Of a DNA stretch of 64,000 nt, positions 1 through 64,000 are shown piece after piece. Where the stretch lies: contig CAWHPT010000013.1 in assembly GCA_963831225.1 (NCBI GenBank), forward strand, positions 12,916 to 76,915, in the 5' to 3' direction. This DNA comes from an uncultured Alphaproteobacteria bacterium (lineage in GTDB: Bacteria; Pseudomonadota; Alphaproteobacteria; Rhizobiales; Xanthobacteraceae). Position numbers and translations under genes: made by a program. Within the stretch, counting starts at the first letter, position 1, and each line of letters opens with the position of its first letter. The notes under the pieces were generated by a model, which did no database searches, was not told the DNA's origin, and was given only the letters and a program-made list of their open reading frames with translations.

Positions 1-634
1 CGCGCGCGCCATCGCCCATATCGGCGGCATCGGCTCGCTGCGCGGCGTGCACAATGCGCAGAACGCCGCCTGTGCCGCGGGCGCGGCGCTGGCGCTCGGG
101 CTCTCCGCGCAGGCGATCCAGCAAGGACTGCGTCTCGTTTCCCGGCCTCGCGCACCGCATGGAGCAGGTCGGGCGCAAGGGGCGCGTGCTGTTCGTCAAC
201 GATTCCAAGGCCACCAATGCGAATTCGGCCGCCCAGGCGCTGGCCTGCTTCTCCGACATTTTCTGGATCGCGGGCGGCAAGCCGAAGACCGGCGGCATCG
301 CCTCGCTCGCCGGCTTCTTCCCGCGCATCCGCAAGGCCTATCTGATCGGCGAGGCCGCCGCCGGCATTTGCCGCCGAGCTCGAAGGGCAGGTGCCGCATG
401 TCGTCGCCGGAACGCTCGAGCGTGCGGTCGCGCTGGCCGCCCGCGATGCCGAGGCGTCCGATGTCGCAGGAGCCGGTCGTGCTGCTGTCGCCGGCCTGCG
501 CCTCGTTCGACCAGTATCGCAATTTCGAGGTGCGCGGCGACGCGTTCCGCGAGCTGGTGCTGGCGCTGCCGGGCATGGCGCCGATGATTCTTCGCGTTAA
601 CGGGCCGTCAACCACCGACAGGGCACCACTGTAG
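1..634 (+). pseudogene. murD: UDP-N-acetylmuramoylalanine--D-glutamate ligase MurD, 3' part (5' end outside window), frame broken about 3 times
   Basis: MurD C-terminal peptides lie in three frames: [30 protein letters not shown] and [12 protein letters not shown] (ORF 54..587), [22 protein letters not shown] (ORF 391..600), [28 protein letters not shown] (ORF 47..634). It sits directly upstream of ftsW. Confidence 0.85.
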
Positions 635-717
635 CGGTTCCGGCGACGTGAGACCGTCTCTGACGAGCGCAATGCAGCTTGCATCGGTCTTGCGCTTCGC
701 CTCGGGGGGGGGATGCC

Positions 718-1879
718 ATGGTTTCGCGCCTCGAACGCACGTCTTTTGCCGCCTGGTGGTGGACGGTCGACCGCTTGCTGCTGGCGGCGCTGCTGGCGCT
801 CATGCTCGCCGGAATCGTGCTCTCGCTGGCCGCAAGTCCGCCGGTCGCGTCGCGGCTGGGGCTGGAGCCGTTCTATTTCGTCAATCGCCACGTGCTCTAC
901 CTGGTGCCGGCGCTCGTCGGTGCTGCTCGCGACCTCGTTCCTGCCGCTGCGATATGTCCGCCGGCTCTCGCTGGTGGTGTTCGTGCTGAGCCTCGTGCTC
1001 ATCGTCGCCACCCTGCATTTCGGTGCCGAAGTGAAGGGCGCGCGCCGTTGGATCGTCCTTTTCGGGGTCAACCTGCAGCCGTCGGAGTTCCTCAAGCCTG
1101 CCTTCGTCATCCTGATCGCCTGGCTGTTCGGCGAATCCGCGCGCCGGCCGGAAATGCCGGCCAATGCCATGGCGCTTGCGCTGCTCGTGCTGTCGATCAG
1201 CCGGCCTCGTGCTGCAGCCGGATTTCGGGCAGACCATGCTGGTCGCGCTGGTCTGGAGCGCACTGTTCTTTCTCGCCGGGATGCGGCTGGTCTGGGTGGC
1301 CGGCCTCGGCGGCGCGGCCGCGGTCGGGCTCGTCAGCGCCTACATGCTCATTCCGCATGTCGCGCGACGCATCGAGCGCTTCCGCGATCCCTCATCCGGG
1401 GATACGTTCAATATCGACCAGGCGATCGAATCCTTTCAACGCGGCGGCTGGTTCGGAAGGGGACCGGGCGAGGGAACGGTCAAGCGCATTTTGCCCGAGA
1501 GCCATACCGACTTCGTGTTCGCGGTCGCGGCCGAGGAGTTCGGCATCGTGCTGTGCCTGCTGCTGCTCGTCTTTGTTCACTTTCATCGTGCTGCGCGCCT
1601 TGCGCCATGCGATGCGGAACGAAGACCCCTTCGCGCGCTTCGCAACCGCCGGCCTTGCGATCCTGTTCGGCCTGCAATCGGCCATCAATATGGGAGTAAA
1701 TCTGCATCTCATGCCGGCCAAGGGCATGACGCTGCCGTTCATCTCCTACGGCGGTTCATCGATGATCTCGCTCGCCTACGGCATGGGAATGCTGCTCGCT
1801 TTGACGCGCGAGCGCCCGCGCGCCGAGCTGCTGGCGAGCCATGGCGGGTTCGCAGCCGCCGGGAGCCGCGGTCCGATGA
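718..1879 (+). pseudogene. ftsW: Peptidoglycan glycosyltransferase / lipid II flippase FtsW, frameshifted several times
   Basis: ATG 718 opens MVSRLERTSFAAWWWTVDRLLL. SEDS motifs LQPSEFLKPAFVILIAW, LQPDFGQTM, PESHTDFVFAVAAEEFG and MPAKGMTLPFISYGGSS are spread over ORFs 679, 713, 1164 and 679 again. The likely stop, TGA 1877-1879, overlaps the murG ATG. Confidence 0.85.
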
Positions 1880-2999
1880 GCGACGGCGATGGCGCGCCGC
1901 TCGTTCTGCTGGCCGCCGGCGGAACCGGCGGGCACCTGTTTCCGGCCGAAGCGCTCGCGCAGGCGCTCACACGCCGCGGCGTCACCGTCGATCTCGCAAC
2001 CGATGACGCGGGCCGAGCGCTACGGCAAGCGAATTCCCGGCCCGCCAAATTCACATCATCGCGAGCGAGACCGTGCGGGGACGCGATCCGATATCGCTGG
2101 CGCGCACCGCCGCAATGCTGGGCATCGGCAGCATGCAGGCCCTGCGCCTGCTCGGACGCATCAAGCCGTCGCGCCGTGGTCGGTTTCGGCGGCTATCCGA
2201 CGGTGCCGCCGGTTCTGGCGGCGAGGCTGCGCAGAATCCCGACCCTCATCCATGAGCAGAACGCGGTCATGGGACGCGCCAACCGTTTCCTTGCACCGCG
2301 GGTGACGCGCAATCGCGACCGGCTTTGCCGGCGTGCTCGAGCGCGAGCCGCAGCTCGCCGCCAAATCGACACGGACCGGCAATCCGGTCCGGCCGCAGGT
2401 GATCGCGGCGGCGGCAATGCCTTACGTGGCGCCGGAGGCTTCCGGAGCCCCTGCGTCTGATCGTGTTCGGCGGCAGCCAGGGGGCGCGCATCATGGCCGA
2501 CATCGTGCCGCCTGCGCTCGAGCGGCTCGAGCCACATCTGCAGTTGCGCCTCTCGATCGTGCAACAGGCCCGTGAAGAGGATCTCGAGCGGGTCAAGGAC
2601 CGTCTATGCGCGCGCGCGAATTGCGTCCGAAGTTGCGCCGTTCTTCACCGATCTTCCTGCGCGGATCCAGCCAGCCATATCGTCGTGGCGCGTTCCGGCG
2701 CGTCGACCGTGGCCGAGGTTGCCACGATAGGGAGGCCCGCTATCCTGGTGCCGTTGCCGCATGCCCTCGATCAGGACCAGTCGGCCAATGCTGGCGTGCT
2801 GGCGGACGCCGGAGCAGCAATTCGCCTGCCGCAGGGCGAATTCACACCCCATCGGCTCGCGGCTGAAATCAGCGCACTTGCAAGCTCGCCGCAAAAGCTC
2901 GTAGCAATGGCCGCGGCCGCACGCTCGCAGGGCTCCACCAATGGTGCCGAGCGGCTCGCCGATCTGGTGGAGAAAGTGGCCGGCCTCGCAGCTGCCTAA
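1876..2999 (+). pseudogene. murG: Undecaprenyl-PP-MurNAc-pentapeptide GlcNAc transferase MurG, frameshifted several times
   Basis: Motifs LLAAGGTGGHLFPAEAL, GFGGYPTVPPVLAA, IHEQNAVMGRANRFLAP, VFGGSQGA and ARSGASTVAEVATIGRPAILVPLP lie in at least four frames (ORFs 679, 1889, 2073, 2463, 2606). It falls between ftsW and murC. Confidence 0.85.
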
Positions 3000-3057
3000 T
3001 TCGGCTGGCATCGGGCCATTTTGCTGCGATCCGACCGAGTCACAGAGGGACCCCGAC

Positions 3058-4470
3058 ATGAAACTGCCGCGCGACATCGGTCCGATCCACTTCGTCGGCA
3101 TCGGCGGCATAGGCATGAGCGGCATCGCCGAGGTGCTGATCAATCTCGGCTATGCGGTGCAGGGCTCCGACGCCGCGGAGAGCGCCAATGTCAAGCGCTT
3201 GCGCGAGAAGGGTGCCAGGATCGCCGTGGGCCATTCCGCCGGTGCCCTCGGCGACGCCGAGGTGGTCGTGGTTTCGACCGCGATCAAGCGCGACAACCCG
3301 GAGCTTGCCGCGGCGCGGGCGAAACGGCTGCCGGTGGTGCGCCGCGCCGAGATGCTGGCCGAGCTGATGCGGCTCAAGCGTTGCATCGCGGTCGCCGGGA
3401 CTCACGGAAAGACCACGACCACATCGCTCGTTGCCGCGCTGGTCGATGCCGGCGGGTTCGATCCGACGGTCATCAATGGCGGCATCATCAACGCCTATGG
3501 CACCAATGCACGGCTCGGCGCCGGCGACTGGATGATCGTCGAGGCCGACGAATCCGACGGCACCTTTCTGAAGCTTCCGGCCGACGTCGCCATCGTCACC
3601 AATGTGGATCCCGAGCACCTCGATCATTTCAAGACCTTCGAAGCCGTGCAGGAAGCATTCCGTGCCTTCGTCGAGAACGTGCCCTTCTACGGCTTCGCGG
3701 TGATGTGCACGGATCATCCGGTGGTGCAGCAGCTCGTCGGGCACATCACCGACCGTCGGCTCATCACCTATGGTGAGAACCCGCAGGCGGATGTGCGGCT
3801 CACAGATCTCGACCATGCCAACGGGCAGTCGCGCTTCGCCATCGTGTTCCGCGATCGTGCCGGTGAGACGATGCACGAGATCGGCGGCCTGACGTTGCCG
3901 ATGCCCGGGCAGCACAACGCGCTCAACGCGACCGCCGCGATCGCGGTCGCGCGCGAGCTCGGTATTTCGGACGACATGATCCGCAAAGCCCTGCAGGGCT
4001 TCGGCGGGGTGCGGCGGCGTTTCACCCGTACCGGCGAGTGGAACGGCGTCTCGATCATCGACGACTACGGCCATCACCCCGTGGAGATCGCCGCCGTCCT
4101 GCGCGCTGCGCGCGAATCGAACCAGGGGCACGTGATTGCCGTCATGCAACCGCACCGCTATACGCGGCTTGCGTCGCTGTTCGAGCAGTTCTCGACCTGC
4201 TTCAACGACGCCGACACCGTCATCGTCGCGCCGGTCTATGAGGCCGGCGAGGCGCCGGTTCCCGGCGCCGACCGTGACTCGCTGGTTCAGGGGCTGCGCG
4301 CACACGGCCATCGGCAGGTGATTCCCCTCGACGGAGCCCAGGACCTCGCCTGCATGGTGAGGCGTCTGGCGCAGCCCGGCGACATGGTGGTCTGCCTCGG
4401 CGCCGGCAATATCACGCAATGGGCCTATGCCCTGCCGGGCGAGCTCGCGGCGCTCGGGGCGGTGGCATGA
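3058..4470 (+). CDS. murC: UDP-N-acetylmuramate--L-alanine ligase MurC (intact, 470 aa)
   Basis: ATG 3058 lies within ORF 2941..4470. Motifs: [31 protein letters not shown] (P-loop), Mur ligase middle and C-terminal domains. dcw position. Confidence 0.95.
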
Positions 4471-4584
4471 TGGAAGCGAAGGTCGGCGAGCGTCGCCGCG
4501 ATCGTAGGGTGGCAACCACGAAGTTGCCGTTGCCCACCCTGCTCTCTAACGTGAGCGCGCACAGCAGCTTGAAGGAATGCTTCA

Positions 4585-4806
4585 ATGAACAAGGCATTGT
4601 TGACTGAGCTTCTCGAGTTGACTCCTGCGGAGCGGATCCAACTCGCTGAGGACCTGTGGGACAGCATTGCTCCGGAAGAAATGCCTACCCTGACCCACGA
4701 GCAACAGCAGGAGATCGGACGGCGTATCGCAGAGCATGCGCGTGATCCATCGAGAGCGTCCAACTGGGAGGACGTTAGAGCGCGCCTTTGGGCGCGGTTC
4801 GGATGA
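4585..4806 (+). CDS. Addiction-module antitoxin (Unstab_antitox / TIGR02574-like), 73 aa
   Basis: ORF 4585..4806: LTPAERIQLAEDLWDSI...EQQQEIGRRIAEH is typical of this antitoxin family. Its TGA overlaps the ATG of the downstream toxin (ATGA at 4803-4806). GC looks lower than in the flanking mur genes. Confidence 0.8.
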   Translation: MNKALLTELLELTPAERIQLAEDLWDSIAPEEMPTLTHEQQQEIGRRIAEHARDPSRASNWEDVRARLWARFG

Positions 4807-5102
4807 CCCGACAGTTGATCCTTGCACCGGAGGCAGAAGCCGAGATCGCAGAAGCGGCCAGCTGGTATGAGTTGCGTGGTCGAGGACTCGGCCCTGAATT
4901 CCTTCGCGCCGTCGAAGCTGTGCTGGAAACCGTTCAGCGTAATCCTCAACAATATCAAGTTGTATTCCGAGATTTGCGTCGAGCGCCACTCAGGCGTTTC
5001 CCTTTCAGCGTGATGTATATTTTATCGGAGAGCGAGATCGTGGTGCTGGCGTGCATTCACGGCCGACGGAGTCCCAAGCATTGGAAAGAAAGAGCGCCTT
5101 GA
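4803..5102 (+). CDS. RelE/ParE-family type II toxin (plasmid stabilisation protein-like), 99 aa
   Basis: ATG 4803 lies inside ORF 4788..5102. Motifs AEAEIAEAASWY...NPQQYQVV...LRRAPLRRFPFSVMYILSESEIVVLACIHGRR resemble ParE_toxin (PF05016). There is a 4-nt overlap with the antitoxin. Confidence 0.8.
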   Translation: MTRQLILAPEAEAEIAEAASWYELRGRGLGPEFLRAVEAVLETVQRNPQQYQVVFRDLRRAPLRRFPFSVMYILSESEIVVLACIHGRRSPKHWKERAP

Positions 5103-5174
5103 GCAAATGCCTCCGGCCCGCGTCCGATCCCGACGCAGGACTCCCCCAGAGTTGCTAACTACGGTGCCGCTCGC

Positions 5175-6110
5175 ATGACGCTCCCGCTCCCAGATCTCGT
5201 TCCGGACCTTGCCGCGAAGATGACGCAGCTGCGCGGGCGGCTGCTGGCCAACCAGTCGCTCGCCGAGCTGACCTGGTTTCGTGTCGGCGGACCGGCGCAG
5301 GTTTTGTTCATGCCGGAGGACGAGGCGGACCTGGCCTATTTCCTCGAGCATCTGCCAGGCGAAATTCCGGTGACGGTGATTGGGCTCGGCTCCAATCTCA
5401 TCGTGCGTGACGGCGGTGTGCCCGGCGTGGTCATTCGCCTTGGGCGGGGCTTCAATGAAGTCAAAGTCGAGTCAGGCGCTCGCGTTCGTGCCGGCGCTGC
5501 CGTGCCGGATGTCAAGGTGAGCCGGGCCGCGCAGGAGGCGGCGATCGCGGGACTCGCGTTCTTTCGCGGCATTCCGGGGGGGATCGGCGGCGCTTTGCGC
5601 ATGAACGGCGGCGCCTACGGCCGCGAGACCAGGGATGCGCTGATCGAGGTGCGCGGTATCGATCGGCAGGGCCGTTTGCACATCCTCTCCAATGACGACA
5701 TGCATTACAGCTATCGCCATTGCGGCGCGTCCGAGGACATCATCTTCACCGATGCGCTGTTTCAGGGCACCCTGGGCGATCCGAATCAGATCGCCGCCGA
5801 GATGGACAAAATTACCCATTCGCGCGAGGCCACCCAGCCGATCAAGAGCCGTACCGGCGGCTCGACCTTCAAGAACCCGCCCGGTCACAAGGCTTGGCAA
5901 CTCGTCGACGCCGCCGGGTGCCGTGGTCTAAAGCTCGGCGACGCGCAGGTCTCACCAATGCACTGCAATTTTCTCATCAATCTCGGAGCGTCCACGGGCG
6001 CCGACATCGAAACGCTCGGCGAGGCGGTGCGCGAGCGCGTCAGGGAGCATTCCGGTGTCGAGCTTGAATGGGAGATCAAGCGCATCGGGGTCGCGAAACC
6101 ATCGACATGA
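5175..6110 (+). CDS. murB: UDP-N-acetylenolpyruvoylglucosamine reductase MurB (intact, 311 aa)
   Basis: ORF 5175..6110: [49 protein letters not shown]-binding PCMH fold. dcw position. Confidence 0.95.
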
Positions 6111-7321
6111 GCCAGCCCATCCTCATCGCCGGCGGGGGGCTCGGCGGGCTTACGGCCGCGCTCGGCGCTGGCGCGCCGGGGATGGCAGGTCCGCGTGCTG
6201 GAAGGCGCTTCCGACTTCGGCGCGATCGGATACGGCATCCAGTTCGGGCCCAATGTCTTTCACGTCCTGGATCAGATCGGGGTGAGCGAGGCGGTCTTGC
6301 AGCAGGCGGATTGTCCGCCCGCGGTGCTGATGCTCGATGCATTCACCGGTAACGAGGTGACGCGAGTGCCGACCGCAGCGTCGTTCCGCAGGCGGTTCAA
6401 ATTTCCATACATCATCGTCCACCGGACCGACCTGCACCTCGCGCTCCTCGAGGCCTGCAGGGACAGCAGCGAGATCGAGCTGGTGCCCGACGCCATGGTG
6501 TCGGGGTTTGCCGAGCACGACGGCCTGGTGATGGCGACCACCGAGGACGGGCGTCAGTTTCGCCGGCTCGGCTCTCATCGGTGCCGACGGCCTGCGCTCG
6601 CGCGTTCGCGCCCAGCTGCTCGGCGACGGCGATCCGCGTCCGATCGGCTTCGTGGCGCACCGCACCATCGTTCCGATGCGCGATCTCACAGCAGAAGTGA
6701 GCAGGGACTGCGTCGTGCTCTGGGGCGGGCCGGGCTTTCACATCATCCATTATCCGCTGCGTCACGGAACGCTGTTCAACATCGTCGCGGTATTCCGCAG
6801 CTCCACCCATTCGGAGCGAGGCGACGTCGCCTCCTACCGGGCCGAGCTCGACGCAAACCTACCGCTCGGCACATCCCTCGATGAAGGCGCTGCTCGCCAT
6901 GATGGACCTGGAGCGGCGCTGGGCGGTCGGGGATCGGGACCCGATCCGGCATTGGCACAAGGGCCGGGTGGTGCTGCTCGGCGATGCGGCGCATCCCACG
7001 TTGCAATCGCTTGCGCAAGGCGCCTGCATGGCGATCGAGGATGGCCTTTGCCTGGCGGAGCTGATGCATTCGATGCCAGGCGACTTCGACCGGGCATTCC
7101 GGCGCTATGCGGCCGCCCGCGCGGTGCGGACTGCGCGCGTGACCCTGGAATCGCGTCATCTCTGGGACGTCTATCACGCGGACGGAATTGCGCGAGAGGT
7201 GTATCGGCAAATGCTGGGCGAACGATCCGAGCGCGACGTCTTCCAGTGTCTGGCCTGGCTCTACGACGGCTTCGTCATGCCCGACGGCCGCGGTCCCGTT
7301 GATGGGGACGCTCCGGGATAG
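6107..7321 (+). pseudogene. FAD-dependent aromatic-ring monooxygenase (3-hydroxybenzoate 6-hydroxylase / salicylate hydroxylase-like), about 3 frameshifts
   Basis: ATG 6107 overlaps the murB TGA (ATGA). Motifs ILIAGGGLGGLTAAL (GxGxxG), GADGLRSRVR and LLGDAAHPTLQSLAQGACMAIEDG lie across ORFs 6068, 6195, 6652 and 6881. Confidence 0.7.
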
Positions 7322-9410: not shown

Positions 9411-10727
9411 GCGCGCTGCAGTTGGGCCTGACCCCGAAGATGAGGCCGCTGTCGCCCAAGCGCTCGGTGCTCGTCGCAGCGCTCGATGTCGGGACCAGCA
9501 AGATCGCCTGCGTGATCGGGCGTCTCAAGCGCCGGCAGCCCGAGGAAGTGCCGTCTCTGCGCAGCCACTCCATCGACGTCGTAGGGTTCGGACACACGGT
9601 TGCCCGCGGCATGAAGGCGGGCGGGGTGGTGGATCTCGGTGAGGCCGAAGCTGCGGTTCGGCAATGCGTGGATCTTGCCGAGCGTTCGGCGAAATTGCAG
9701 CTCGAACTCGGTGATCGTCTCGGTTTCTGCCGGTCGTCCCACGAGCGAGCGCATCTCCGCGTCCATCGAGGTCGCCGGCTCCGCTATCGGCGAGCATGAC
9801 GTTGCGCGCGTGCTGACCGCCGCGAGGCGCCATTCCGTGCGCGCGGGCCGTGCCGTGCTTCATTCGCTGCCGATCGGCTATGTGGTCGACGGCGCCGGCG
9901 GGGTGCGTGATCCGCGCGGCATGCTCGCCGGTCGCTTCAGCAGCGAGATGCATGTGGTGACCACGGACATTTCGGTAGCCCGCAATCTCATGCTGGCGAT
10001 CGAGCGTTGCCATCTCGATGTCGAGGCGATGGTGGCGAGCCCGTATGTGGCGGGACTGTCGGTGCTTGCCGAGGACGAAGCCGAGCTCGGCGCGGCCGTG
10101 ATCGATATCGGCGCGGGCACGACGACGACTGCGGTATTCGCGGGCAGCCGTTTCGTTCATGCCGATGGTTTTGCGCTCGGCGGGCTGCACGTCACCATGG
10201 ATCTCGCACGCGGGCTCAACGCCCGGGTTTCCGACGCCGAGCGCATCAAGACCTTGTACGGCAGCGTGCTTACCGGAGCGTCCGACGATCGCGACATGAT
10301 CGCGGTGCCGCCGGTGGAAGGCGACGAGCGCGAGGCGCCGCAATTCGTTTCCCGAGCCAAGCTGGTGCGCATCATCAAGCCACGCCTGGAAGAAATTCTG
10401 GAAATGGTGCGTGACCGCCTCGCGGCATCGCCGTTTGCAGCCGAGCCGCGCGGCCGCGTCGTGCTTGCCGGCGGGGCGAGCCAGCTCACGGGCCTGGTCG
10501 AGCTCGCTGCGCAAATACTCGGCCGGCCGGTGCGGCTCGGCCGGCCGCTCGGCATTGGCGGCCTGCCCGAGGAAGCCAAGGGACCGGCCTTCGCCGTTGC
10601 AACCGGCCTGCTGGTCTACCCGCAGACGGCGCATTTCGAGCATTTTGAACCGCGGCGAACGCGGCACGCGGCGACAGGAGGCGGCTATATCGCACGGGTC
10701 GGACGATGGCTGCGCGAAAGCTTCTGA
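9407..10727 (+). pseudogene. ftsA: Cell division protein FtsA, frameshift near 9680-9720
   Basis: ATG 9407 forms an ATGA overlap with ftsQ. AALDVGTSKIACVIG is in the ORF 8588 frame; DIGAGTTTTAVF, GGLHVTMDLARGL and VLAGGASQLTGLVELA are in ORF 9639..10727. Confidence 0.9.
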
Positions 10728-10806
10728 AGACTCGACATGGAAATTCCCGTCGGCCGGTGGCGGACCGGCCTGACCGGGCGGCGACGTCCGCGGATGAGAG
10801 GCTAAC

Positions 10807-16854: not shown

Positions 16855-16870
16855 GCGGCTGGCATCCGCG

Positions 16871-19025
<2,155 letters not shown>

Positions 19026-19047
19026 TAGGCAGAGCTCCACTATCGAA

Positions 19048-53418: not shown

Positions 53419-53479
53419 GGTTTTTTCCGGCCGCAAGATGAAGGACGACAGTGGGCCGGAACACGTCCGTCCCCGACCG

Positions 53480-54052: not shown

Positions 54053-54174
54053 GGCCAGGGATCCATTTCCTAGTCTAGTTGACCGGCCACCCCGGACCGA
54101 ACACCCGGGACTCACCTGACGAATGCTACGCGCGCAACGGTGTACGCGCCAGTCCGCAAGCTCGTCTTCCAATA

Positions 54175-54548: not shown

Positions 54549-54720
54549 CTCGATATAGGCACGCAATGGTGTCGAAAAAAGAGCCGAATGCGGGATAACT
54601 GGCTGGAGCCCGCGGGTCCGGGTCAATTCTTATTCGGCCAAGCCTTATCCGGCCCAAATCATAGGGAGCCTTTCCGACAAATCGATGGTTCACTGATGGG
54701 ACCAGTCCTAATCTTCCGCC

Positions 54721-55308
54721 ATGCCCGAGACAGTTTCCGCGCGCCGACAGGCACCCGCTCCTGCTTCGCAGTTGCCATCACCCACTCTGCTGGAGCTCTT
54801 CGTCGCCTTCGCTCTGATCTCGCTTTGCGGCTTCGGCGGGGTGTTGGCCTGGTCGCGGCGGATGCTGGTCGAGCAACGCAGGTGGATGACGGCTGAGGAG
54901 TTCAACGACGCCTACGCGCTGTGCCAATTTCTGCCAGGACCGAACGTTGTCAATCTATCGGTCGTGTTCGGCCGGCGCATACGCGGACCGGTTGGCGCGG
55001 CGGTCGCGTTCGTAGGACTGGTCGGCCCCCCTTTCGTCATTGTTTCAATCATCGGCTTCTTCTATGCGCAGTTCGGCGAGATGGCCGCGCTGCAAGGCAT
55101 GCTGGCCGGGGTCGCGGCGGCGGCAGCCGGACTGGTCATGGGAACTTGCGCCAAGATGGCGGTTCCAGTGTTGAAGGATCGGCTCGGCTTGGCTCCCCTG
55201 ATTGCGCTCGCCACCTTCGCTTCAGTCGGGATTCTGCGCTGGCCGCTCTACTGGGCGTTGGCGGTGCTGGTGCCAGTGAGCATCGCGATGGCCTGGTTGC
55301 GGCGATGA
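54721..55308 (+). CDS. chrA: Chromate transporter family protein (ChrA half-size, N-type), 195 aa
   Basis: ORF 54721..55308: LELFVAFALISLCGFGGVLAWSRRMLVEQRRWMTAEEFNDAYALCQFLPGPNVVNL (PF02417 pattern). Confidence 0.85.
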   Translation: MPETVSARRQAPAPASQLPSPTLLELFVAFALISLCGFGGVLAWSRRMLVEQRRWMTAEEFNDAYALCQFLPGPNVVNLSVVFGRRIRGPVGAAVAFVGLVGPPFVIVSIIGFFYAQFGEMAALQGMLAGVAAAAAGLVMGTCAKMAVPVLKDRLGLAPLIALATFASVGILRWPLYWALAVLVPVSIAMAWLRR

Positions 55309-55832
55309 AGGACGCAACGCTGCTGACCCTGGCGGGCTATTTTGCGCTGATGTCGCTGTTCGCAATCGGCGGCGCCAATTCGGCCGTCCCGGAAATGCAC
55401 CGCTTGGCGGTCGAGGTGGAACACTGGATGACCGAGCGGCAGTTCATGGACACGTTTGCGATGGCGCAGGTGACGCCGGGCCCGAACGTCATCATCGTCA
55501 CCTTGATCGGCTATCATGTAGCCGGTCTCCTCGGCGCCGTGGTCGCAACCGCTGCCATGTGCGGTCCTACTTGCGTCTTCGCTTTTTACGTTGGACATGC
55601 CTGGGAGCGTTTCAAGGATGCGCCCTGGAGGGCATGCGTGCAGGCCGGACTGCTTCCGGTCTCGATCGGCCTCATTGCGGCGAGCGCTTTCGTTGTGGCA
55701 TCGGTGGCCGTGCACAACGCGGTGGCCGTTGCACTGATGGCGATCACGGCGGCCATTTCCTATGCGACGAGGTTGAATCCGCTGTGGATTTTTGCGGCCG
55801 CTGCGTTGCTCGGCCTCGCCGGCTGGCTTTGA
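55305..55832 (+). CDS. chrA: Chromate transporter family protein (ChrA half-size, C-type), 175 aa
   Basis: ATG 55305 forms an ATGA overlap with the previous gene: LFAIGGANSAVPEMHRLAVEVEHWMTERQFMDTFAMAQVTPGPNVI. Confidence 0.85.
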   Translation: MKDATLLTLAGYFALMSLFAIGGANSAVPEMHRLAVEVEHWMTERQFMDTFAMAQVTPGPNVIIVTLIGYHVAGLLGAVVATAAMCGPTCVFAFYVGHAWERFKDAPWRACVQAGLLPVSIGLIAASAFVVASVAVHNAVAVALMAITAAISYATRLNPLWIFAAAALLGLAGWL

Positions 55833-55941
55833 TCTTAAATTTGTCGCACTTGCTTCCCGCCGCCCACCTGAATGTGCTACTGAAAAAGTGCCAAGGGGGC
55901 GGAAGTTTCCCGGCGCACCGCGGGTCCGAGGGGTAGTTATT

Positions 55942-56619
55942 ATGTCCGAGGGCGTCAATACGTCCCCGAAGCAATCAGATATCGGTACGCCCCCGAAGCA
56001 ATCAGATATTGGGTTCCTATCCCGAAACGCGAGTAATTTGAGGGGCGGACTGCTGGTCGCCCTTTTGTCTCTCGGGCTTTTTGTTGGCACCTTCTACATC
56101 ATCAGCCCGACAGTTCCGCGGATCATCTCAGGTGCCTTGATTCTGGTTGGGGTAGCGGTGGCGGCGCGCCTCGTGCGGGTGCGCGCTCCGCAGGACTTCT
56201 ATGGCGGGCTGGTCCTCATCATGGTGGCATGCCTGGCCTTGGTAGCCTCCGCTGAGTTGCCCGGGCAACGCGGCTTTGCCTTCGGTCCCGGGACTGCCCC
56301 CCGGCTGTTTGCAGGTCTTCTGGTTGCGCTCGGCACCGCGGTGGCATTCACCGGCCTCATTGCCGAAGGACCCCGCATCGAAAAATACAACATCCGCGGG
56401 CCGGTCCTGGTGATCGGCGCGATTCTCGGCTTCTCTGCAATGATCCGTCCGCTCGGCCTCATCATCGCGAGCTACGTGACTTTCGTTGTCGCGATCCTGG
56501 GATCCAAGGAAGTACGCATAGTGGAAGCCTTGATCGGCGCCGCGGTAATGACCGCTTTTTGCGTCCTGCTGTTCGTCTACTTGCTCAATCTGCCGTTCCA
56601 ACTCTGGCCGCGGTTTTGA
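55942..56619 (+). CDS. tctB: Tripartite tricarboxylate transporter small membrane subunit TctB, 225 aa
   Basis: ATG 55942 in ORF 55792..56619. Four predicted TM segments, directly upstream of tctA. The N-terminus carries a duplicated PKQSDIG motif. Confidence 0.75.
   Translation: MSEGVNTSPKQSDIGTPPKQSDIGFLSRNASNLRGGLLVALLSLGLFVGTFYIISPTVPRIISGALILVGVAVAARLVRVRAPQDFYGGLVLIMVACLALVASAELPGQRGFAFGPGTAPRLFAGLLVALGTAVAFTGLIAEGPRIEKYNIRGPVLVIGAILGFSAMIRPLGLIIASYVTFVVAILGSKEVRIVEALIGAAVMTAFCVLLFVYLLNLPFQLWPRF
55964..56009 (+). repeat. Tandem duplication, 27-nt period, 19-nt perfect core CCCCGAAGCAATCAGATAT x2
   Basis: The core occurs at 55964-55982 and 55991-56009, encoding PKQSDIGTP / PKQSDIGFL in tctB. 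Confidence 0.9.
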
Positions 56620-56636
56620 TGCGGGAGGTGTAAGTC

Positions 56637-58142
56637 ATGTCTGACCTACTCGCGAACCTTGCGCTGGGTTTTGGGGTCGCGGCGCAGCCTTGGAACATCG
56701 CGTTCTGTTTGCTCGGCGCACTGGTCGGCACCCTTGTCGGAGTGCTCCCGGGCATCGGCACGGTCGCCACCATTGCCATGCTGCTGCCGATCACCTTCGG
56801 GCTGCCGCCGGTCGGAGCCTTGATCATGCTCGCCGGCATCTATTACGGCGCGCAATATGGCGGCTCGACCACCTCGATCCTGGTCAATATTCCGGGTGAG
56901 GCGACCTCCGTGGTTACCGCACTCGACGGCCACCAGATGGCCCGGCAGGGACGGGCTGGGGCGGCGCTGTCGATCGCGGCCATCGCGTCATTTTTTGCGG
57001 GCTGCGTGGCGACCGTGCTGGTCGCCGCGCTCGGCGCCCCCCTGACGAGCATGGCGCTGCTGTTCGGACCAGCCGAATATTTTTCACTTATGACTCTGGG
57101 TTTGATCTTCGCGGTGGTCCTGGCCAAGGGCTCCGTGCTCAAGGCGATTGCGGTCATCGTTCTGGGACTGCTCCTGTCGATGGTCGGCTCCGACCTCGAG
57201 ACCGGCGCGGGACGAATGACTTTCGACCTGCCGGAGCTCGCCGACGGCATCGGCTTTGCCAATATCGCGATGGGGGTCTTTGGATTCGCCGAGATCGTTC
57301 GCAACCTCGAGTTGCCGCCAGAGAGCCGAGATGTCCTCAATGCCAAGGTCAGCGGCCTGATGCCGACGCGCAAGGATCTCATCGATTCCTCCAGCGCCAT
57401 CGCCCGCGGCACGGTGGTTGGATCGCTGTTGGGCATCCTGCCGGGTGGCGGCGCGGTGATCGCGTCTTTCGCGGCCTACACTTTCGAGAAAAGGATGAAC
57501 AAGTCACCGGAGCGCTTCGGCCGCGGCGCTATCGAAGGGGTGGCCGCCCCCGAAAGCGCCAATAATGCCGCCGCGCAGACCTCGTTCATCCCGCTGCTCA
57601 CGCTCGGCATCCCTCCTAACGCGGTGATGGCGCTGATGGTGGGTGCCATGACCATCCACGGCATCGTGCCGGGTCCGCAGGTCATGACCAAGCAACCAGA
57701 CCTGTTCTGGGGCATGATTGCTTCGATGTGGCTCGGCAATTTGATGCTCGTCGTCATCAATCTGCCGCTGGTGGGAGTGTGGGTCACCCTGCTGCGAGTG
57801 CCTTACCGGCTGCTGTTTCCCTCCATCATCGTGTTCTGCTGCATCGGCGTCTATTCCATCAACAACTCGCCGTTCGACGTCCAGATCGCAGCGGCCTTCG
57901 GCCTGATCGGCTATTGGCTGCTCAAGCACGATTTCGAGCCGGCGCCCATGCTGCTCGGGTTCGTGCTCGGACCGCTGATGGAGGAGAACCTCCGCCGCGC
58001 CATGCTGATCGCCCGCGGCGATGCGACGGTGTTCTTCACTCGGCCGATCTCGGCGGTGTTGCTGAGCATCGCAATCATTCTGCTCGTCATCGCCGCAATG
58101 CCGAAGATTCGCCGCCGCCGCGACGAAGTGTTCGTGGAATAG
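56637..58142 (+). CDS. tctA: Tripartite tricarboxylate transporter permease TctA (intact, 501 aa)
   Basis: ORF 56637..58142 follows GGGAGG: GVLPGIGTVATIAMLLP, YYGAQYGGSTTSILVNIPGE, LGILPGGGAVIASF, PESANNAAAQTSFIPLLTLGIP. Confidence 0.9.
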   Translation: MSDLLANLALGFGVAAQPWNIAFCLLGALVGTLVGVLPGIGTVATIAMLLPITFGLPPVGALIMLAGIYYGAQYGGSTTSILVNIPGEATSVVTALDGHQMARQGRAGAALSIAAIASFFAGCVATVLVAALGAPLTSMALLFGPAEYFSLMTLGLIFAVVLAKGSVLKAIAVIVLGLLLSMVGSDLETGAGRMTFDLPELADGIGFANIAMGVFGFAEIVRNLELPPESRDVLNAKVSGLMPTRKDLIDSSSAIARGTVVGSLLGILPGGGAVIASFAAYTFEKRMNKSPERFGRGAIEGVAAPESANNAAAQTSFIPLLTLGIPPNAVMALMVGAMTIHGIVPGPQVMTKQPDLFWGMIASMWLGNLMLVVINLPLVGVWVTLLRVPYRLLFPSIIVFCCIGVYSINNSPFDVQIAAAFGLIGYWLLKHDFEPAPMLLGFVLGPLMEENLRRAMLIARGDATVFFTRPISAVLLSIAIILLVIAAMPKIRRRRDEVFVE

Positions 58143-58377
58143 GGGCTTGGCTGCGTCGCGGGCCCTGTATTCGCCGCAGCGCAGGTAGCAAGGCTGCGGC
58201 GCGCTGCGAGGCGGAGTCGTCAGCAGATTTTTATGGCCCGCAGCCGCTTGCTTGCAACCGGTTTACTGCTCCGGGCAAGAGCGCTCATGCCGACTGCAGC
58301 GATAACAGTCTGTTGAGAAGTGTTGACTGGACCCAGCGGACGAAGGCGTCACAAGATGGGGCGAGCTTCCTGGGAGG

Positions 58378-58850
58378 ATGCCTTGGCGCGGTCTGTTGCG
58401 ATCGTTGAAGTTGTCGTAATGGCGGCTTGGGCCAGCTTGGCTTTGGCCATGCCGCCATCGCCCGCGCGCCGGAAGTCTATACCGGCCTGCTGTCCTCCAC
58501 CGCGCTCGGCGGCTACGATCCGGTCGCCTATTTCACCGAAGGCAAGCCGGTGGCGGGCAAGCCGCGACATCACTTTCATCTGGAAGGACGTGACTTGGCG
58601 GTTCGCCACCGAAAAGAATCGCGAGCTTTTCAAGGAAAAGCCCGAGGCCTACGCGCCCCAATATGGTGGCTATTGCGCGTGGGCGGTGTCGCGCGGTTAC
58701 ACCGCCAAGGGCGATCCGAGATATTGGAAGGTCGTCGATGGCAAGCTCTACCTGAACTATGACGCCGGCGTTCAGAAGGATTGGGAGAAGGATATCCCCG
58801 GCAACATCGGCAAGGGCGACAAGAACTGGCCGAAGGTGCTCGACAAATAG
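58378..58850 (+). pseudogene. YHS-domain periplasmic protein, about 3 frameshifts in the first half
   Basis: ATG 58378 follows GGGAGG. LGGYDPVAYFTEGKPVAGKP is in ORF 58427; ITFIWKDVTWRFATEKNRELFKEKPEAYAPQYGGYCAWAVSRGY...YWKVVDGKLYLNY is in ORF 58320..58850. Confidence 0.75.
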
Positions 58851-58954
58851 ATCGCGGCCGGAGGCGCTTCCTCCGGCGGCCAATTTCACTGGACGAACGG
58901 CAAGCTGGGTTAGACTGCGCTCCCGAGTCGCTCATCGCCGCGGAGGCCCTGTCG

Positions 58955-59750
58955 ATGCGCCAGTACCTCGATCTGATGGAACGGATCCTCGCCGAAGGCG
59001 TGGAGAAGCAGCGATCGCACCGGCACCGGCACGCTCTCGGTCTTCGGCCACCAGATGCGCTTCGACCTCGGCGAGGGCTTTCCACTCACGACCACCAAGA
59101 AGCTGCACCTGAAATCGATCATCCATGAGCTGCTCTGGTTCCTGGCCGGCGACACCAACGTCGAATATCTGAACCAGCACGGGGTCACGATCTGGGACGA
59201 GTGGGCCGACGCCGCCGGCGAGCTCGGACCGGTCTACGGCCGGCAATGGCGCTCGTGGCCGACGCCCGGCGGCGGCACCATCGATCAGATCGCAAATGTC
59301 GTTTCCGCCATCCGCCGCAATCCGGATTCGCGCCGCCTCATCGTCACCGCCTGGAATCCGGCGGATGTCGACAAAATGGCGCTGCCGCCGTGCCATTGCC
59401 TGTTCCAGTTCTATGTCGCCAAGGGGCGGCTCTCCTGCCAGCTCTATCAGCGCTCAGCCGATGTCTTTCTCGGCGTGCCCTTCAACATCGCTTCCTATGC
59501 GTTGCTGACGGCGATGGTGGCGCAGGTGACCGGCCTCACAGCCGGCGAGTTCGTGCACACGCTCGGCGACGCCCACCTTTACCTCAATCATCTCGAGCAG
59601 GCGCGACTGCAGCTTCGCCGGTTGCCGCGTCGAATGCCCACAATGGTGCTCGATCCCGCGGTGACCGATCTTTTCGTCTTCCGCCACGAGCATTTCTCAC
59701 TCGAAGGCTACGACCCGCACCCGCACATCAAGGCCGAGGTGGCGGTCTAA
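58955..59750 (+). pseudogene. thyA: Thymidylate synthase ThyA, one frameshift near 59005-59015
   Basis: [18 protein letters not shown] (ATG 58955, ORF 58781 frame), then ...[19 protein letters not shown] and [11 protein letters not shown] (catalytic Cys), [18 protein letters not shown] in ORF 59055..59750. Confidence 0.9.
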
Positions 59751-60038
59751 CCATGACCCCTTTACCGCGAGATACTCTGCAGCAATTGGCCCTCGCAAAA
59801 GTTGACGATGCTCGAGAGATGGCGCGCGCACTGGATGCCAAAGGCGATCTGCGCAAGCGCCTTGACCTCGCAAGGGTGAGTTGGTCCCTCCGTCCGACCG
59901 GATGTTAGGGGCGATTGGTAGAGCGGTACGAGTAGATGGGCTCAGCACCGTTAGATTCAGCCGGAATGTCGTCAATGGCATGTATATTGACGATGCCCTG
60001 ATATACCGTTTGGCCGCGTAACCCATTGCGATCGTCAG

Positions 60039-60554
60039 ATGTCACGGCTGGATTTGCAGATCGCGCTCGTCCACGTTGCAGCGGTGGCGGAGAATGGCGT
60101 CATCGGGCAGCTCGGCAAGCTGCCGTGGCGGCTCAAATCCGAAATGGCGCATTTCCGCAGCATCACCATGGGCAAGCCGGTGATCATGGGGCGCAAGACA
60201 TACCTGTCCATCGGCAAGCCGCTTGCTGGCCGTACCAACATCGTGGTGAGCCGTGCAAAGTGCTTCGCCGCTCCCGGCGTGCTGGTGGCGCCCAGCATCC
60301 AGGCTGCGCTGATCGCCGCGCGGGGCGATGCGTTGCGGCGCGGCGCCCGCGAGATCGCCATCATCGGCGGCGCCGAGATCTACGCAGAGACGATGGCCGT
60401 CGCGGACCGCCTGATCATCACGCGGGTGCACCTGCGGCCGGAGGGCGACACGAGATTTCCTGCGATCGAACCTGACATCTGGCGGGAAATGAAGCGAACC
60501 GAGCACTGCGCGGGCCCCGATGACGAAGCGAGCTTCACGGTGCTCGATTTATGA
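60039..60554 (+). CDS. folA: Dihydrofolate reductase FolA (intact, 171 aa)
   Basis: ORF 60039..60554: VAAVAENGVIGQLGKLPWRLKSEMAHFRSITMGKPVIMGRKTYLSIGKPLAGRTNIVVS...IIGGAEIY. Confidence 0.9.
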   Translation: MSRLDLQIALVHVAAVAENGVIGQLGKLPWRLKSEMAHFRSITMGKPVIMGRKTYLSIGKPLAGRTNIVVSRAKCFAAPGVLVAPSIQAALIAARGDALRRGAREIAIIGGAEIYAETMAVADRLIITRVHLRPEGDTRFPAIEPDIWREMKRTEHCAGPDDEASFTVLDL

Positions 60555-60728
60555 GCGACGTGCCGCCCAGCTCAGCGGGTCTGGAATGAATTGCGCGTAT
60601 TTCAAGGCCATGCGTTCCCACGCCGCACGCGCTCCAGCCGCGTTGTAACGCGGTGACTCCTCCCCTATAACCGCATCAACCGAACAACGCGCCGCGGCAC
60701 GTGCGCCGGCGCAGCGAGGAGATAGCCG

Positions 60729-61870
60729 ATGCCGTGGAGCAATCAGGGCGGCGGGCCTTGGGGATCAGGAGGCGGCGGCGGAGGAGGCGGCAAGGGCCCC
60801 TGGGGCTCCGGGCCGCAACAGTCGGGGCCGACGCCGCCCGATCCTCGAGGAGTTTCTGCGCCGCAGCCAGGACAAGCTGCGCACCGTGCTTCCCGGCGGA
60901 AATCTCGGCGGTAAGGGGCTCAGCCTGATCGTGCTTGCCGCAGTTGCCATCTGGGGATTTTCCGGCTTCTTCCGGGTCGATCCCGACGAGCTCGGCGTGG
61001 TGCTGCGGTTCGGCAAATATGTGCGCGACGCCAAGCCCGGCCTCAATTATCATCTGCCCTATCCGATCGAGACGGTGCTCACTCCCAAGGTTACCCGGGT
61101 CAACCGCATCGACATCGGCATGCGTCTCGTCGAAGATCTGCGCCGCGGCACCACCATCCGCGATGTGCCGGAGGAGAGCTTGATGCTCACCGGTGACGAG
61201 AACATCGTCGACGTCGATTTCTCGGTGTTCTGGCTGATCAAGCCCGACGGCGCCGGCGATTATCTGTTCAATATCCAGCAGCCGGAAGGCACGGTAAAGG
61301 CAGTTGCCGAAAGCGCGATGCGCGAGATCGTCGGCCGCTCCAACATTCAGCCGATCCTCACCGGCGCGCGGCAGAATATCGAGACCGGCGTCCAGGAACT
61401 GATGCAGATCCACGCTCGACCAGTACGGTGCAGGAATTCAAGTGACCCAGGTGCAACTGCAGAAGGTCGACCCGCCGTCGCAGGTGATCGATTCGTTCCG
61501 CGATGTTCAGGCCGCCCGCGCCGACCTCGAACGCTCGCAGAACGAAGCGCAGACTTATGCCAATCAGGGTGGTCCCGGAGGCGCGCGGCCGCGCCTCGCA
61601 AATCATCCAGAACGCCGAAGCTTATCGCGAGCAGGCCGTGGCCGAAGCCACCGGTGGCACAGTCGCGCTTCATCAAGGTGTTGGATGAATACAAGAAAGC
61701 CCCCGACGTGACGCGCCAGCGCATGTATCTGGAGACCATGGAACGGCTGTTCGGTGGAACTGACAAGATCATCATGGATTCCGGAGCCACGGGCGGAGTC
61801 GTGCCCTATCTGCCGCTCGATCAGTTGACAAGGCGGCCGCCGGCGCCGCAGACGGGAGGCCCCGCGATGA
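60729..61870 (+). pseudogene. hflK: FtsH modulator HflK (SPFH/band-7), about 4 frameshifts
   Basis: ATG 60729 follows GAGGAGA. Gly-rich N-terminus MPWSNQGGGPWGSGGGGGGGG. The SPFH core is in ORFs 60886, 61442 and 61503 (VVLRFGKYVRDAKPGLNYHLPYPIE, QVQLQKVDPPSQVIDSFRDVQAARAD). The likely stop, TGA 61868-61870, overlaps the hflC ATG. Confidence 0.85.
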
Positions 61871-62823
61871 GACTCAATCTTTTCGGCGGCATCATCGCCG
61901 CCCTCATCGTCGCGGCGCTGATCGTCGCCTATGGCGCGATGTTCACGGTCTATCAAACTCGGCAGGCGCTCGTGGTCCGGCTCGGCCAGCCGGTGCGAGT
62001 GGTCACCCAGCCCGGGATTGCATTTCAAAGTTCCGCTGATCGACAGCGTCATCCATATCGACAAGCGCATCCTCGACCTCGAGAACCCGGCGCAAGAAGT
62101 GATTGCCTCGGACCAGAAGCGGCTCGTGGTCGATGCCTTTCGCCCGCTATCGCATCAGGGATGCGTTGAGATTCTACCAATCGGTCGGCACCGTGGAAGG
62201 GGCCAATTCACGGCTTTCCACCCTGCTCAATTCGGCGCTGCGGCGGGTGCTCGGCGAGTCGACACTGACGCAGGTCGTGCGCGATCAGCGTGAGCAGCTG
62301 ATGGCGCGTGTGCGCGATCAACTCGACAACGAGGCGCAGGCATTCGGAATCTCCATCGTCGATGTGCGCATCCGTCGGGCCGATCTGCCCGAGCAAAACA
62401 GCCAGGCGGTCTATGAACGCATGAAAACCGAGCGTCAGCGGGAGGCACAGGAATTCCGCTCGCAAGGCCTCCAGCGCGCGCAGGAAATCCGAGCGAAGGC
62501 CGATCGCGACGTCACCATTCTTCTGGCCGAAGCGCAGTCGAAAGGCGAACAGACGCGCGGCGAGGGCGATGGTGAGCGCAACCGGATCTACGCCGAGGCC
62601 TATAGCCGGGATCCTGATTTCTTCTCGTTCTATCGGTCGATGCAGGCCTACGAAGCCGGGATGAAGCGCCAACGACACCCGCATGCTGCTCACGCCGGAT
62701 TTGGATTTTTTCCGCTATTTCGTCGATCCCTCGGGCAAGATGCGCGAAGGAGCGGCAAGCGCGGGCAGGAATCGCAATGGAGCCGCTACCTCCGGTACCA
62801 CGGCGGAACCTGCTCCAAGGTAG
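61867..62823 (+). pseudogene. hflC: FtsH modulator HflC (SPFH/band-7), about 3 frameshifts
   Basis: MRLNLFGGIIAALIVAALIV (ATG 61867), LHFKVPLIDSV (ORF 61931), ARYRIRDALRFYQSVG...IVDVRIRRADLPEQNSQAVYERMKTERQREA (ORF 62103). The tail ...DTRMLLTPDLDFFRYF... ends at TAG 62821-62823. Confidence 0.85.
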
Positions 62824-62858
62824 CAGCGTTGTTTGCCGGACGGCACCGGTTAGGCAAC

Positions 62859-63045
62859 ATGGCCCAGTTCGTCGTTGCGATCGGACTCGTGCTGGTGATC
62901 GAAGGACTGCTGTTTGCGGCTTTTCCCGGCGCCGCCAAGCGGCTTGGCCGCGACCGCGCTCGAAAGTCCGGAAACATCGCTTCGGGTTGCAGGAATCGTG
63001 TCTGCTGTGCTGGGAACAGTCCTTATCTGGATCGTGCGCGGATGA
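62859..63045 (+). pseudogene. DUF2065 small membrane protein, one frameshift
   Basis: MAQFVVAIGLVLVIEGLLFAAFPGAAKRL (ATG 62859), then ...LRVAGIVSAVLGTVLIWIVRG* in the +1 frame (stop 63043-63045). It has the usual position after hflC. Confidence 0.7.
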
Positions 63046-63189
63046 ACACGAATGCTGCCGGCGGGACTGCGCTGGTCCCGATTCCGCCCCAATCCGGAGC
63101 GTACTTTGGCCGATTCGAGACCGCCCCTTGCGTCCATTCCCGCACGGGAGCACTGTCTCGCCCTCTCGACCGCAGGAGCTTAGACGACC

Positions 63190-64000
63190 ATGCTCGGCAC
63201 CGTCGCAAACTTCGCCCGGCGGATCCGCCGGCCTACCCTGGCCGCGGTTGCAGCGGCCGCGATGATCTTGCCGACGCTCCCGTCCGCGTCGGTCGCGCGC
63301 GGACCGGATGCGATCTCCGAAGTCGCCGAGAAGGTGATCGACGCGGTGGTCAACATCTCCACTTCGCAAAAGGTGGAGTTGCGCAATACCCCGATGCCGC
63401 AACTGCCCAACGATCCGCAGCTGGACGAGCTGTTCCGGGACTTTTTCAATCGGCGCGGGCAGCAGGGCGACAATCAGAATCCTCAGCGTGGGCCGCGACG
63501 CGTCAGTTCGCTCGGCTCCGGCTTCATAATCGATGCTTCGGGCATCGTCGTTACCAACAATCACGTCATCTCGGAAGCCGATGAGATTACTGTCATCCTC
63601 AACGACGGTGCGCGCCTGAAAGCCGAGTTGATCGGCAAGGATCAGAAGACCGATATCGCGCTTCTCAGGGTGAAGAGCGACAAGCCGCTCAAGGCCGTGA
63701 AGTTCGGCGATTCGGAAAGACTGCGGCTCGGCGAATGGGTGATCGCCATCGGCAATCCGTTCAGCCTCGGCGGTACCGTGACCGCGGGCATCGTTTCAGC
63801 GCGCAACCGCGACATCAATTCGGGGCCATACGACAATTATATCCAGACCGATGCCTCGATCAACCGCGGCAATTCGGGAGGGCCTCTGTTCAACCTCGAC
63901 GGTGAAGTGATCGGCGTCAACACCGCGATCATCTCTCCTTCCGGCGGTTCGATCGGGATCGGCTTTGCAGTCCCGTCGAAGACGGCGCTGCCCGTGATCG
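63190..64000 (+). CDS. DegP/DegQ/HtrA-family periplasmic serine protease, 5' part (runs off the window)
   Basis: My own translation from ATG 63190 gives a signal peptide, VVTNNHV (His), KTDIALLRV (Asp) and TDASINRGNSGGPLFN (Ser). The frame stays open to 64000. This ORF is not in the supplied track because it has no stop. Confidence 0.85.
   Translation, partial: MLGTVANFARRIRRPTLAAVAAAAMILPTLPSASVARGPDAISEVAEKVIDAVVNISTSQKVELRNTPMPQLPNDPQLDELFRDFFNRRGQQGDNQNPQRGPRRVSSLGSGFIIDASGIVVTNNHVISEADEITVILNDGARLKAELIGKDQKTDIALLRVKSDKPLKAVKFGDSERLRLGEWVIAIGNPFSLGGTVTAGIVSARNRDINSGPYDNYIQTDASINRGNSGGPLFNLDGEVIGVNTAIISPSGGSIGIGFAVPSKTALPVI

Follow-up and report, generated by a model that had tools for sequence, protein, structure and literature searches.

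The window analysed here is a stretch of 64,000 nucleotides (64 kilobases, kb) from an uncultured alphaproteobacterium of the Xanthobacteraceae (GenBank assembly GCA_963831225.1, contig CAWHPT010000013.1, positions 12,916–76,915), in which approximately 32 of 54 genes (~60%) are interrupted by frameshifts, with Viterbi junctions added for the gene at 19.05–20.3 kb. We are highly confident that these frameshifts are errors of the deposited consensus sequence and not mutations in the organism. What is new here is that the blocks in which genes are broken coincide with blocks in which the sequence diverges from other assemblies of the same species. The window has a G+C content of 65% and opens within a division and cell-wall (dcw) cluster (murD 3′ end, ftsW, murG, murC, murB, ddl, ftsQ, ftsA and ftsZ), which is followed by lpxC, bamD, recN and ligA and, further along, by four tctC paralogues, tctB, tctA, uvrD, fumC, sspB, the gene for transfer-messenger RNA (tmRNA), thyA, folA, hflK and hflC. 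Gene names derive from NCBIfam, Pfam and Rfam matches and from the Pfam annotation of sibling contigs.

The presence of frameshifts, at a frequency far above chance, is confirmed at the level of codon statistics, protein and DNA. A codon-usage Viterbi model, trained on long clean open reading frames (ORFs), gives a path through the window with 89 direct same-strand frame junctions. A purpose-written frameshift-aware protein-to-DNA dynamic-programming aligner, run with the ORFs of 11 related loci, places ~55 event clusters between 1 and 23 kb, each seen in 3–17 alignments from up to 10 reference loci and recurring to within a few codons; counts per gene from this alignment are given in Table 1. 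Viterbi junctions, protein-level events and DNA-level insertions or deletions (indels) coincide, usually within 5–20 bases, and the majority of Viterbi junctions are no more than a few bases away from a window-specific single-base indel. Approximately 100 frame-disrupting indels specific to the window lie in genes, and ~147 are found when intergenic DNA is included. The initial annotation, made from the sequence alone, had held that about half of the genes are broken, indispensable ones among them, and each gene that it named as broken is upheld; it correctly saw many shifts, and its estimate of several dozen was too low. Three other procedures contributed little: an earlier tblastn search that used every raw ORF of relatives was overwhelmed by the off-frame ORFs, of low complexity, that arise in GC-rich DNA, a frame plot of G+C at third codon positions was too noisy to place frame changes, and a comparison of the longest open frames after ‘repair’ was uninformative, as off-frames stay open at 65% G+C and one repair broke ftsZ.

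Pfam scans of three-frame translations with stops masked find single domains divided between frames. The MFS_1 profile is matched over positions 36–184 in one frame and 200–289 in another, and CN_hydrolase over 1–84 and 94–227 in separate frames. Two of the tctC genes are split in this way (profile positions 1–103 and 98–255), and in tctC-1 the C-terminal end alone is lost by frameshift, with the rest in one frame. UvrD_C is spread over two frames (1–100 and 100–342), with the helicase N-domain in a third, and the Band_7 domain of HflK is found as positions 2–127 and 128–175 in separate frames. The first 15 positions of the thymidylate synthase profile are missing from its main frame, and the Sigma70 r2 and r4 regions of an ECF sigma factor are in different frames. 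Pfam also splits the NMT1-like binding protein, the ParA-like ATPase, ThyA, HflC and DUF2065. Three apparently window-specific indels in asmA were rejected as alignment noise, the window ORF being unbroken and of the same length as in a sibling contig (L100).

Comparison with intact homologues reveals the state of the broken genes. Twenty-one of them align from the first residue to the last, at 70–100% identity, without in-frame stops or gaps of at least 5 amino acids (aa), and with 76 frameshifts between them (61 of +1, 10 of −1, 4 of +2 and 1 of −2); for this set the earlier observation that in-frame stops and large deletions are lacking holds. Substitutions relative to conspecific sequences fall on codon position 3 in 63–71% of cases, with protein identities of 91–100%, and this third-position bias means that the frames now ‘broken’ were kept under purifying selection throughout strain divergence. 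Essential genes are affected together (ftsW, murG, ddl, ftsQ, ftsA, lpxC, bamD, ligA and thyA), and intact copies of ftsW, murG, ddl, lpxC, ligA and thyA, as well as of the other listed genes, are almost certainly present in the organism.

Independent assemblies of the same species allow the indels to be polarized. Sibling contigs were found through exact matches of clean window proteins and their 90% cluster mates; they come from five other ENA assemblies (ERZ25039504, -536, -547, -586 and -591), have Flye-style names and carry the labels L085–L100 here. Short contigs were added from JGI metagenomes and Logan assemblies of SRA runs, both taken to be short-read, together with one SPAdes contig. 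DNA identity to the window is mostly 94–98%, and 83–92% for L088, L100 and L101. The nearest GTDB genomes, among the matches listed in an ftsZ-based search, are uncultured Xanthobacteraceae and ‘Alphaproteobacteria’ metagenome-assembled genomes (MAGs) at no more than 80% nucleotide identity, with the exception of one short segment of L026 at 84%, and that set therefore afforded no direct DNA comparison. Indels were taken from pairwise gap-friendly blastn alignments, a MAFFT multiple alignment having under-called 1-base gaps, and were regarded as window-specific when every reference backed them; where four or more cover the site, backing by at least 75% sufficed.

At least two independent references cover ~53 kb of the window, and over this length the window has 88 single-base insertions and 22 single-base deletions of its own, along with 12 two-base events and 4 of at least 3 bases. 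All 12 other assemblies that cover eamA, including three Logan and two JGI contigs, lack its three indels. Genes broken in the window are intact elsewhere: ftsW (385–400 aa) and murG (372 aa) in L085 and L088, ftsA (439 aa) in L085, and lpxC, bamD and ddl in L087. An intact 879-aa UvrD, 99% identical, is encoded by L090, and in JGI short-read soil contigs RecN (570 aa) and LigA (724 aa) are intact. Each of these two proteins is 85% identical to the window, and alignment to them again places 7 and 10 shifts in the window, at unchanged coordinates. Each long-read assembly in turn breaks a different set of genes: ftsZ in L085; murD through murC in L087; ddl, ftsA and bamD in L088; asmA in three pieces, with SspB–FumC and HflK–HflC fused, in L086; and fumC and tctA, both shattered, in L100. 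The frameshift problem is general to these sibling long-read assemblies. The initial annotation had named recurrence of the indels in independent data as the outcome that would speak against single-base indel error; the comparison with independent same-species assemblies, which have the locus without the window’s indels, came out in favour of error.

These comparisons bear directly on the alternative that the frameshifts record massive pseudogenisation in a decaying lineage with half of its genes frameshifted. The indels are truly in the deposited sequence and two of them are common to other assemblies, and a large share of frameshifted genes is also what is seen in reductive genomes such as those of Mycobacterium leprae and recent endosymbionts. 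The window differs from such genomes in that more than 100 frameshifts are accompanied by neither an in-frame stop nor a large deletion, in that protein conservation is kept and selection is not relaxed, substitutions being biased to third positions, and in that essential genes of division, the envelope and replication are among those affected. Insertions predominate, whereas bacterial gene decay leans to deletions, as Mira, Ochman and Moran reportedly found in 2001. The shifts are not reproducible either: conspecific assemblies lack them and each has its own set, with 2 of more than 100 shared. We regard real pseudogenisation on this scale as extremely improbable. That the errors sit in the deposited sequence follows from the presence of the exact window ORFs among public NCBI and ENA proteins, where they are assigned to an 80,093-bp contig. 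Among these deposited products is a 458-aa DUF697 protein, the orthologue of which has 344 aa; we attribute the extension to a frameshift or to divergent downstream sequence.

The breaks are strongly clustered. Their index of dispersion per kb is 3.19, a value that never exceeded 1.88 when events were placed at random 10,000 times, and there are 23 empty 1-kb bins (6.4 expected) and 6 event-free gaps of at least 2 kb (1.4 expected). The event-free stretches (2668–6162, 9708–11882, 25094–28642, 30475–33590 and 46982–58356) match and extend the clean intervals of the initial annotation, which had described the breaks as falling in blocks. Most clean stretches (3–6, 27–28.6, 31–33 and 52–58 kb) have 0–9 mismatches per kb relative to conspecifics and are about 99.5–100% identical to other assemblies, and broken stretches (0–3, 13–16, 21–26 and 29–30 kb) have 34–111 mismatches per kb and are 3–11% divergent. 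In bins of 500 bases, indels rise from 0.48 per kb where there are fewer than 5 mismatches per kb up to 7.0 per kb where there are more than 60, and indel density follows mismatch density (Spearman 0.62, p = 8e-13). The mismatches themselves are natural, because they lie mostly at third codon positions and leave proteins 91–100% identical. Other assemblies show the same coupling, the private insertions of L081 lying in the two 1-kb bins in which it diverges from L083.

A variation of consensus quality along the contig would produce such blocks. Segments near-identical to a commonly sampled, abundant strain would gather many reads and polish well, and lineage-private segments, 3–11% divergent, would be left with few or strain-mixed reads and near-raw indel rates of up to 7 per kb. 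On balance, and with some reserve, we lean towards read depth or strain mixture as the cause. The uneven consensus quality suggested in the initial annotation is supported to this extent, with the unevenness tied to local divergence from co-occurring or conspecific strains rather than demonstrably to polishing. We infer that the source is a Nanopore assembly made with Flye plus Medaka, of the Microflora Danica (MFD) long-read type, in which case its record would belong to ENA project PRJEB58634. The names of the sibling contigs and the series of their ENA accessions point that way, as do the nearest of the GTDB relatives listed, which are MFD MAGs. The MFD long-read (MFD-LR) pipeline uses Nanopore reads, Flye in meta/nano-hq mode and one round of Medaka, with no short-read polishing, and MAGs of lower coverage are acknowledged by its authors to contain Nanopore-associated errors (PMC12313526). 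With R10.4 Nanopore data, a coverage of about 40x is required before assemblies are free of gene-fragmenting indels (PMC9262707), and tools for detecting such assembly errors exist (PMC12007338).

Two other origins of the block structure were weighed. Reads of an abundant sister strain could have mapped onto the divergent blocks during polishing, so that mixed pile-ups, and not low depth, gave rise to the extra bases. Such mapping would place the indels where the contig differs by 3–11% from the common strain, as is observed here and in the other assemblies, and might account for the dominance of insertions. Two strains can indeed occur in one sample: two contigs of this species cover the same locus in ERZ25039504 (L082/L094 and L090) and in ERZ25039591 (L083 and L091), from which it follows that closely related strains co-occur. 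Mismatches, however, are not enriched within 2 bases of insertions, and we hold this origin to be a tentative and rather unlikely one; the same observation gives no support to the idea that the extra bases are two adjacent alleles of a single-nucleotide polymorphism. Short-read polishing or hybrid gap filling of a patchy kind, by which clean blocks were Illumina-corrected and broken ones were not, would also yield an alternation of clean and dirty sequence on the kilobase scale. It is improbable, given that the clean blocks are near-identical to the assemblies of other strains, which polishing alone would not bring about, and that the probable pipeline, to which the window is linked by inference, has no short-read polishing step (PMC12313526).

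The spectrum of the errors is dominated by insertions, which outnumber deletions 4:1 (sign test, 88 versus 22, z ~6.3). Homopolymer context, which the initial annotation had proposed to examine, does not describe them: in an earlier comparison that included single-reference regions, 67 of 94 single-base insertions (71%) extend no run, against a background in which 58% of positions are in runs of length 1, and 4 of 94 inserted bases lie in runs of at least 3. Inserted bases are 73% G or C, compared with 65% for the sequence. The sole context signal is that changes from GG to GCG and from CC to CGC are roughly twice as frequent as expected (22 of 94, versus about 9). No 4-mer motif at the indels is significant after multiple-testing correction, and GATC and CGATCG are not convincingly enriched; TCGA is weakly enriched (p = 0.029, uncorrected). 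Classic homopolymer-type error of the Nanopore, 454 or Ion Torrent kind was therefore rejected, the indels not being in homopolymer runs, as was basecalling error at methylation motifs, there being no recurring short motif. Context also bears on programmed recoding, whether by ribosomal frameshifting or transcriptional slippage, to which nothing points beyond the existence of +1 shifts; the sites have no slippery or homopolymer context, there are up to 10 shifts in one gene, and neither conspecifics nor relatives have the shifts in common with the window, which makes recoding vanishingly improbable.

Several points weigh against reading the frameshifts as consensus errors. The comparison assemblies are other strains, at 94–98% identity, and not the same DNA, and the region from 46.6 to 64 kb has one close reference, so that polarity there rests partly on reading-frame evidence. 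The Nanopore platform and the thin read support are themselves presumed. With its bias towards insertions and 71% of inserted bases outside homopolymers, the spectrum is not that of textbook Nanopore error. Finally, two shifts are shared with other assemblies, which random error does not explain. In tctC-1 (minus strand), the window, contig_115888 and L083 lack one base at 27020, where their coding strand reads AA instead of AAA; L090 and contig_150034 have the base. In uvrD (minus strand), the window and contig_115888 have an extra base at 38924 that is found in neither L090 nor L093. These two may be real alleles in dispensable genes, or may stem from reads common to two of these contigs, should both come from a single sample. 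That a few shifts, such as these, are real segregating alleles, and that the mosaic reflects real recombination between co-existing soil Xanthobacteraceae lineages, is possible though doubtful; if it were so, one lineage would carry an inactivated uvrD.

Watson and Warr are said to have described gene-fragmenting indel errors in long-read assemblies in 2019. The window resembles assemblies with Nanopore indels, as recognized by the IDEEL test, in that single-base consensus indels split otherwise intact genes; a further likeness is the disappearance of the errors in independent or better-covered assemblies, and a probable one the dependence of their frequency on read depth (PMC9262707, PMC8103633, PMC12007338). 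Classic Nanopore indels differ in being homopolymeric and mostly deletions, whereas in the window 80% are insertions, 71% of the inserted bases lie outside runs and no motif is seen. A second likeness is to strain-collapsed or mosaic metagenome contigs, in which shared segments are collapsed and private ones thinly covered: the window similarly alternates between ~99.5–100% identical and 3–11%-divergent blocks, and its species can have more than one contig per sample. The mosaic could equally be explained by real recombination in a low-abundance lineage.

With the frameshifts read as consensus errors, every apparent pseudogene, fusion, truncated or extended product and odd ORF in the window is suspect without read-level support, and the same caution extends to the sibling assemblies with errors of their own. 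Public protein collections already contain frameshift fragments, and possibly frameshift-extended products, predicted from contigs of this kind. Homopolymer-aware fixes would miss errors that are insertion-biased and outside homopolymers, and the concentration of errors in strain-private parts means that the most variable and most interesting parts of a population genome are the least reliable. The biological interest of the breaks is small; their practical importance is larger, for those who build and use long-read MAG catalogues.

The block-by-block arrangement of the window is given in Table 1. At the end of ftsZ, the window ORF terminates at 12483 and the proteins of relatives align on to 12523; the end being out of frame, the conserved C-terminal peptide is mis-read.

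Table 1. Clean and broken segments of the window, with their genes and the frame changes placed in them (position 1 is the first base of the window)
Positions	Strand	Segment and genes	Frame changes and comparison with other sequences
1–2990	+	Broken block: murD 3′ part, ftsW, murG	~16 single-base indels, almost all +1; ftsW 3–4 and murG 7 shifts; protein-level events at 919, 1199, 1569, 2005, 2030, 2169, 2308, 2447, 2595 and 2669, at sites of window-specific extra bases relative to L085, L087 and L088; 4–11% divergent from conspecific assemblies (39–111 mismatches per kb)
2991–6162	+	Clean block: murC, 0.7 kb of small ORFs, murB	0 window-specific indels; murC and murB each a full-length NCBIfam match in one frame; 2–9 mismatches per kb relative to L085
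6163–9707	+	Moderately broken block: FAD-binding monooxygenase gene, ddl, ftsQ, ftsA	Monooxygenase 3 shifts; ddl +1 at 8247 and −1 at 8331; ftsQ 8558/8586 and 8815; ftsA 9707
9708–12472	+	Clean block: ftsA 3′ part, ftsZ	FtsZ matches TIGR00065 in one frame; frame lost only at the extreme C-terminus (+1 at 12473, −2 at 12477; events 12463–12477)
12473–25093		Most heavily broken block: lpxC, bamD, recN, ligA, pepP-like M24 peptidase gene, prmA, MFS transporter gene, CN_hydrolase gene, unnamed minus-strand gene at 19.05–20.3 kb	Shifts: lpxC 6, bamD 5–6, recN 7, ligA 10, pepP-like 8–10, prmA 2–3, MFS transporter about 4, CN_hydrolase 1–2, minus-strand gene at least 6; 34–108 mismatches per kb; DNA-level indels where there are references
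25094–28642	−	Clean block: PEP mutase gene, tctC-1	PEP mutase in a single frame; sole frameshift a 1-base deletion at 27020
28643–30474	+	Broken tctC-2 and tctC-3	TctC split between frames; tctC-2 +1 at 28645 and +1 at 29122; tctC-3 +1 at 29380, +1 at 29514 and −1 at 29929; indels backed by all three references
30475–33590	+	Clean block: non-coding stretch with small RNA CC2171, intact tctC-4 (32112–33089)	0–3 mismatches per kb; tctC-4 matches TctC profile 1–272 of 274 in one frame; 99.7% identical, with no gaps, to short-read SPAdes contig L084
33591–33622	+	NMT1-like substrate-binding protein gene (33093–34090)	Broken by two single-base insertions
35495–35608	+	eamA	−1 at 35496, +1 at 35601, +1 at 35607
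36576–36641	+	ParA-like ATPase gene (36422–37100)	Frame change(s); N- and C-terminal parts of Pfam CbiA in different frames; shift also seen by protein alignment to an intact 227-aa orthologue
37707–40345	−	uvrD (Pfam UvrD-helicase, UvrD_C)	In three frames; window-specific +1 at 39244 and −1 at 39404; +1 at 38924 common to contig_115888
43600–45300	+	Broken, highly divergent block: DUF697 3′ end, ECF sigma factor gene, collagen-repeat ORF	
46982–58356		Longest clean block: asmA-like (1256 aa), RHH/DUF4169, fumC, sspB, tmRNA, two chromate-transporter genes, tctB, tctA	No frame change in any gene; AsmA length as in L100; 51–58 kb with 2–17 mismatches per kb relative to L086; 47–51 kb with 11–42 per kb yet frame-consistent
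58357–63070	+	Broken block: YHS-like gene, thyA, folA, hflK, hflC, DUF2065	thyA +1 at 59012; hflK about 5 shifts; hflC 3; folA intact except for an indel at its 3′ end; Viterbi junctions 59011, 61411, 61568, 61668, 62019, 62138 and 62667, each no more than 5 bases from a window-specific extra base; Thymidylat_synt, Band_7 and DUF2065 matches split between frames

Several further features were observed along the window. Just upstream of the ftsW start, at 705–713, a run of eight G precedes an A at 713 that is an extra base specific to the window; few other indels lie beside a long homopolymer. Between murC and murB, the window shares ~0.7 kb (4472–5155) with L085 and L087 that is missing from the more distant L088; in the annotation of L087 this stretch carries a small PF09720 (Unstab_antitox) ORF, which suggests a toxin–antitoxin-like insertion in the dcw cluster. 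Within the MFS transporter gene, 709 bp (24027–24736) present in the window are missing from three conspecific contigs (L081–L083), in which the gene is truncated to no more than 167 aa; this is a real structural difference between strains.

Between 30243 and 32129 lies a stretch of 1.9 kb with no coding signal and a lower G+C content (about 60%), inside which positions 30759–30926 (minus strand) match the Caulobacter small RNA family CC2171 at 85 bits (gathering threshold, 75). Adjoining the ECF sigma factor gene is an ORF of collagen triple-helix (G-X-Y) repeats (Pfam PF01391, ~44700–44860, plus strand), in a region that is strongly divergent from sibling contigs and in which L090 is 87% identical. 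In the longest clean block, next to sspB, is a full-length tmRNA of the alphaproteobacterial two-piece type (54179–54584, minus strand; Rfam RF01849, 297 bits), the tag peptide of which is given by ARAGORN as ANDNYAPVAQAA.

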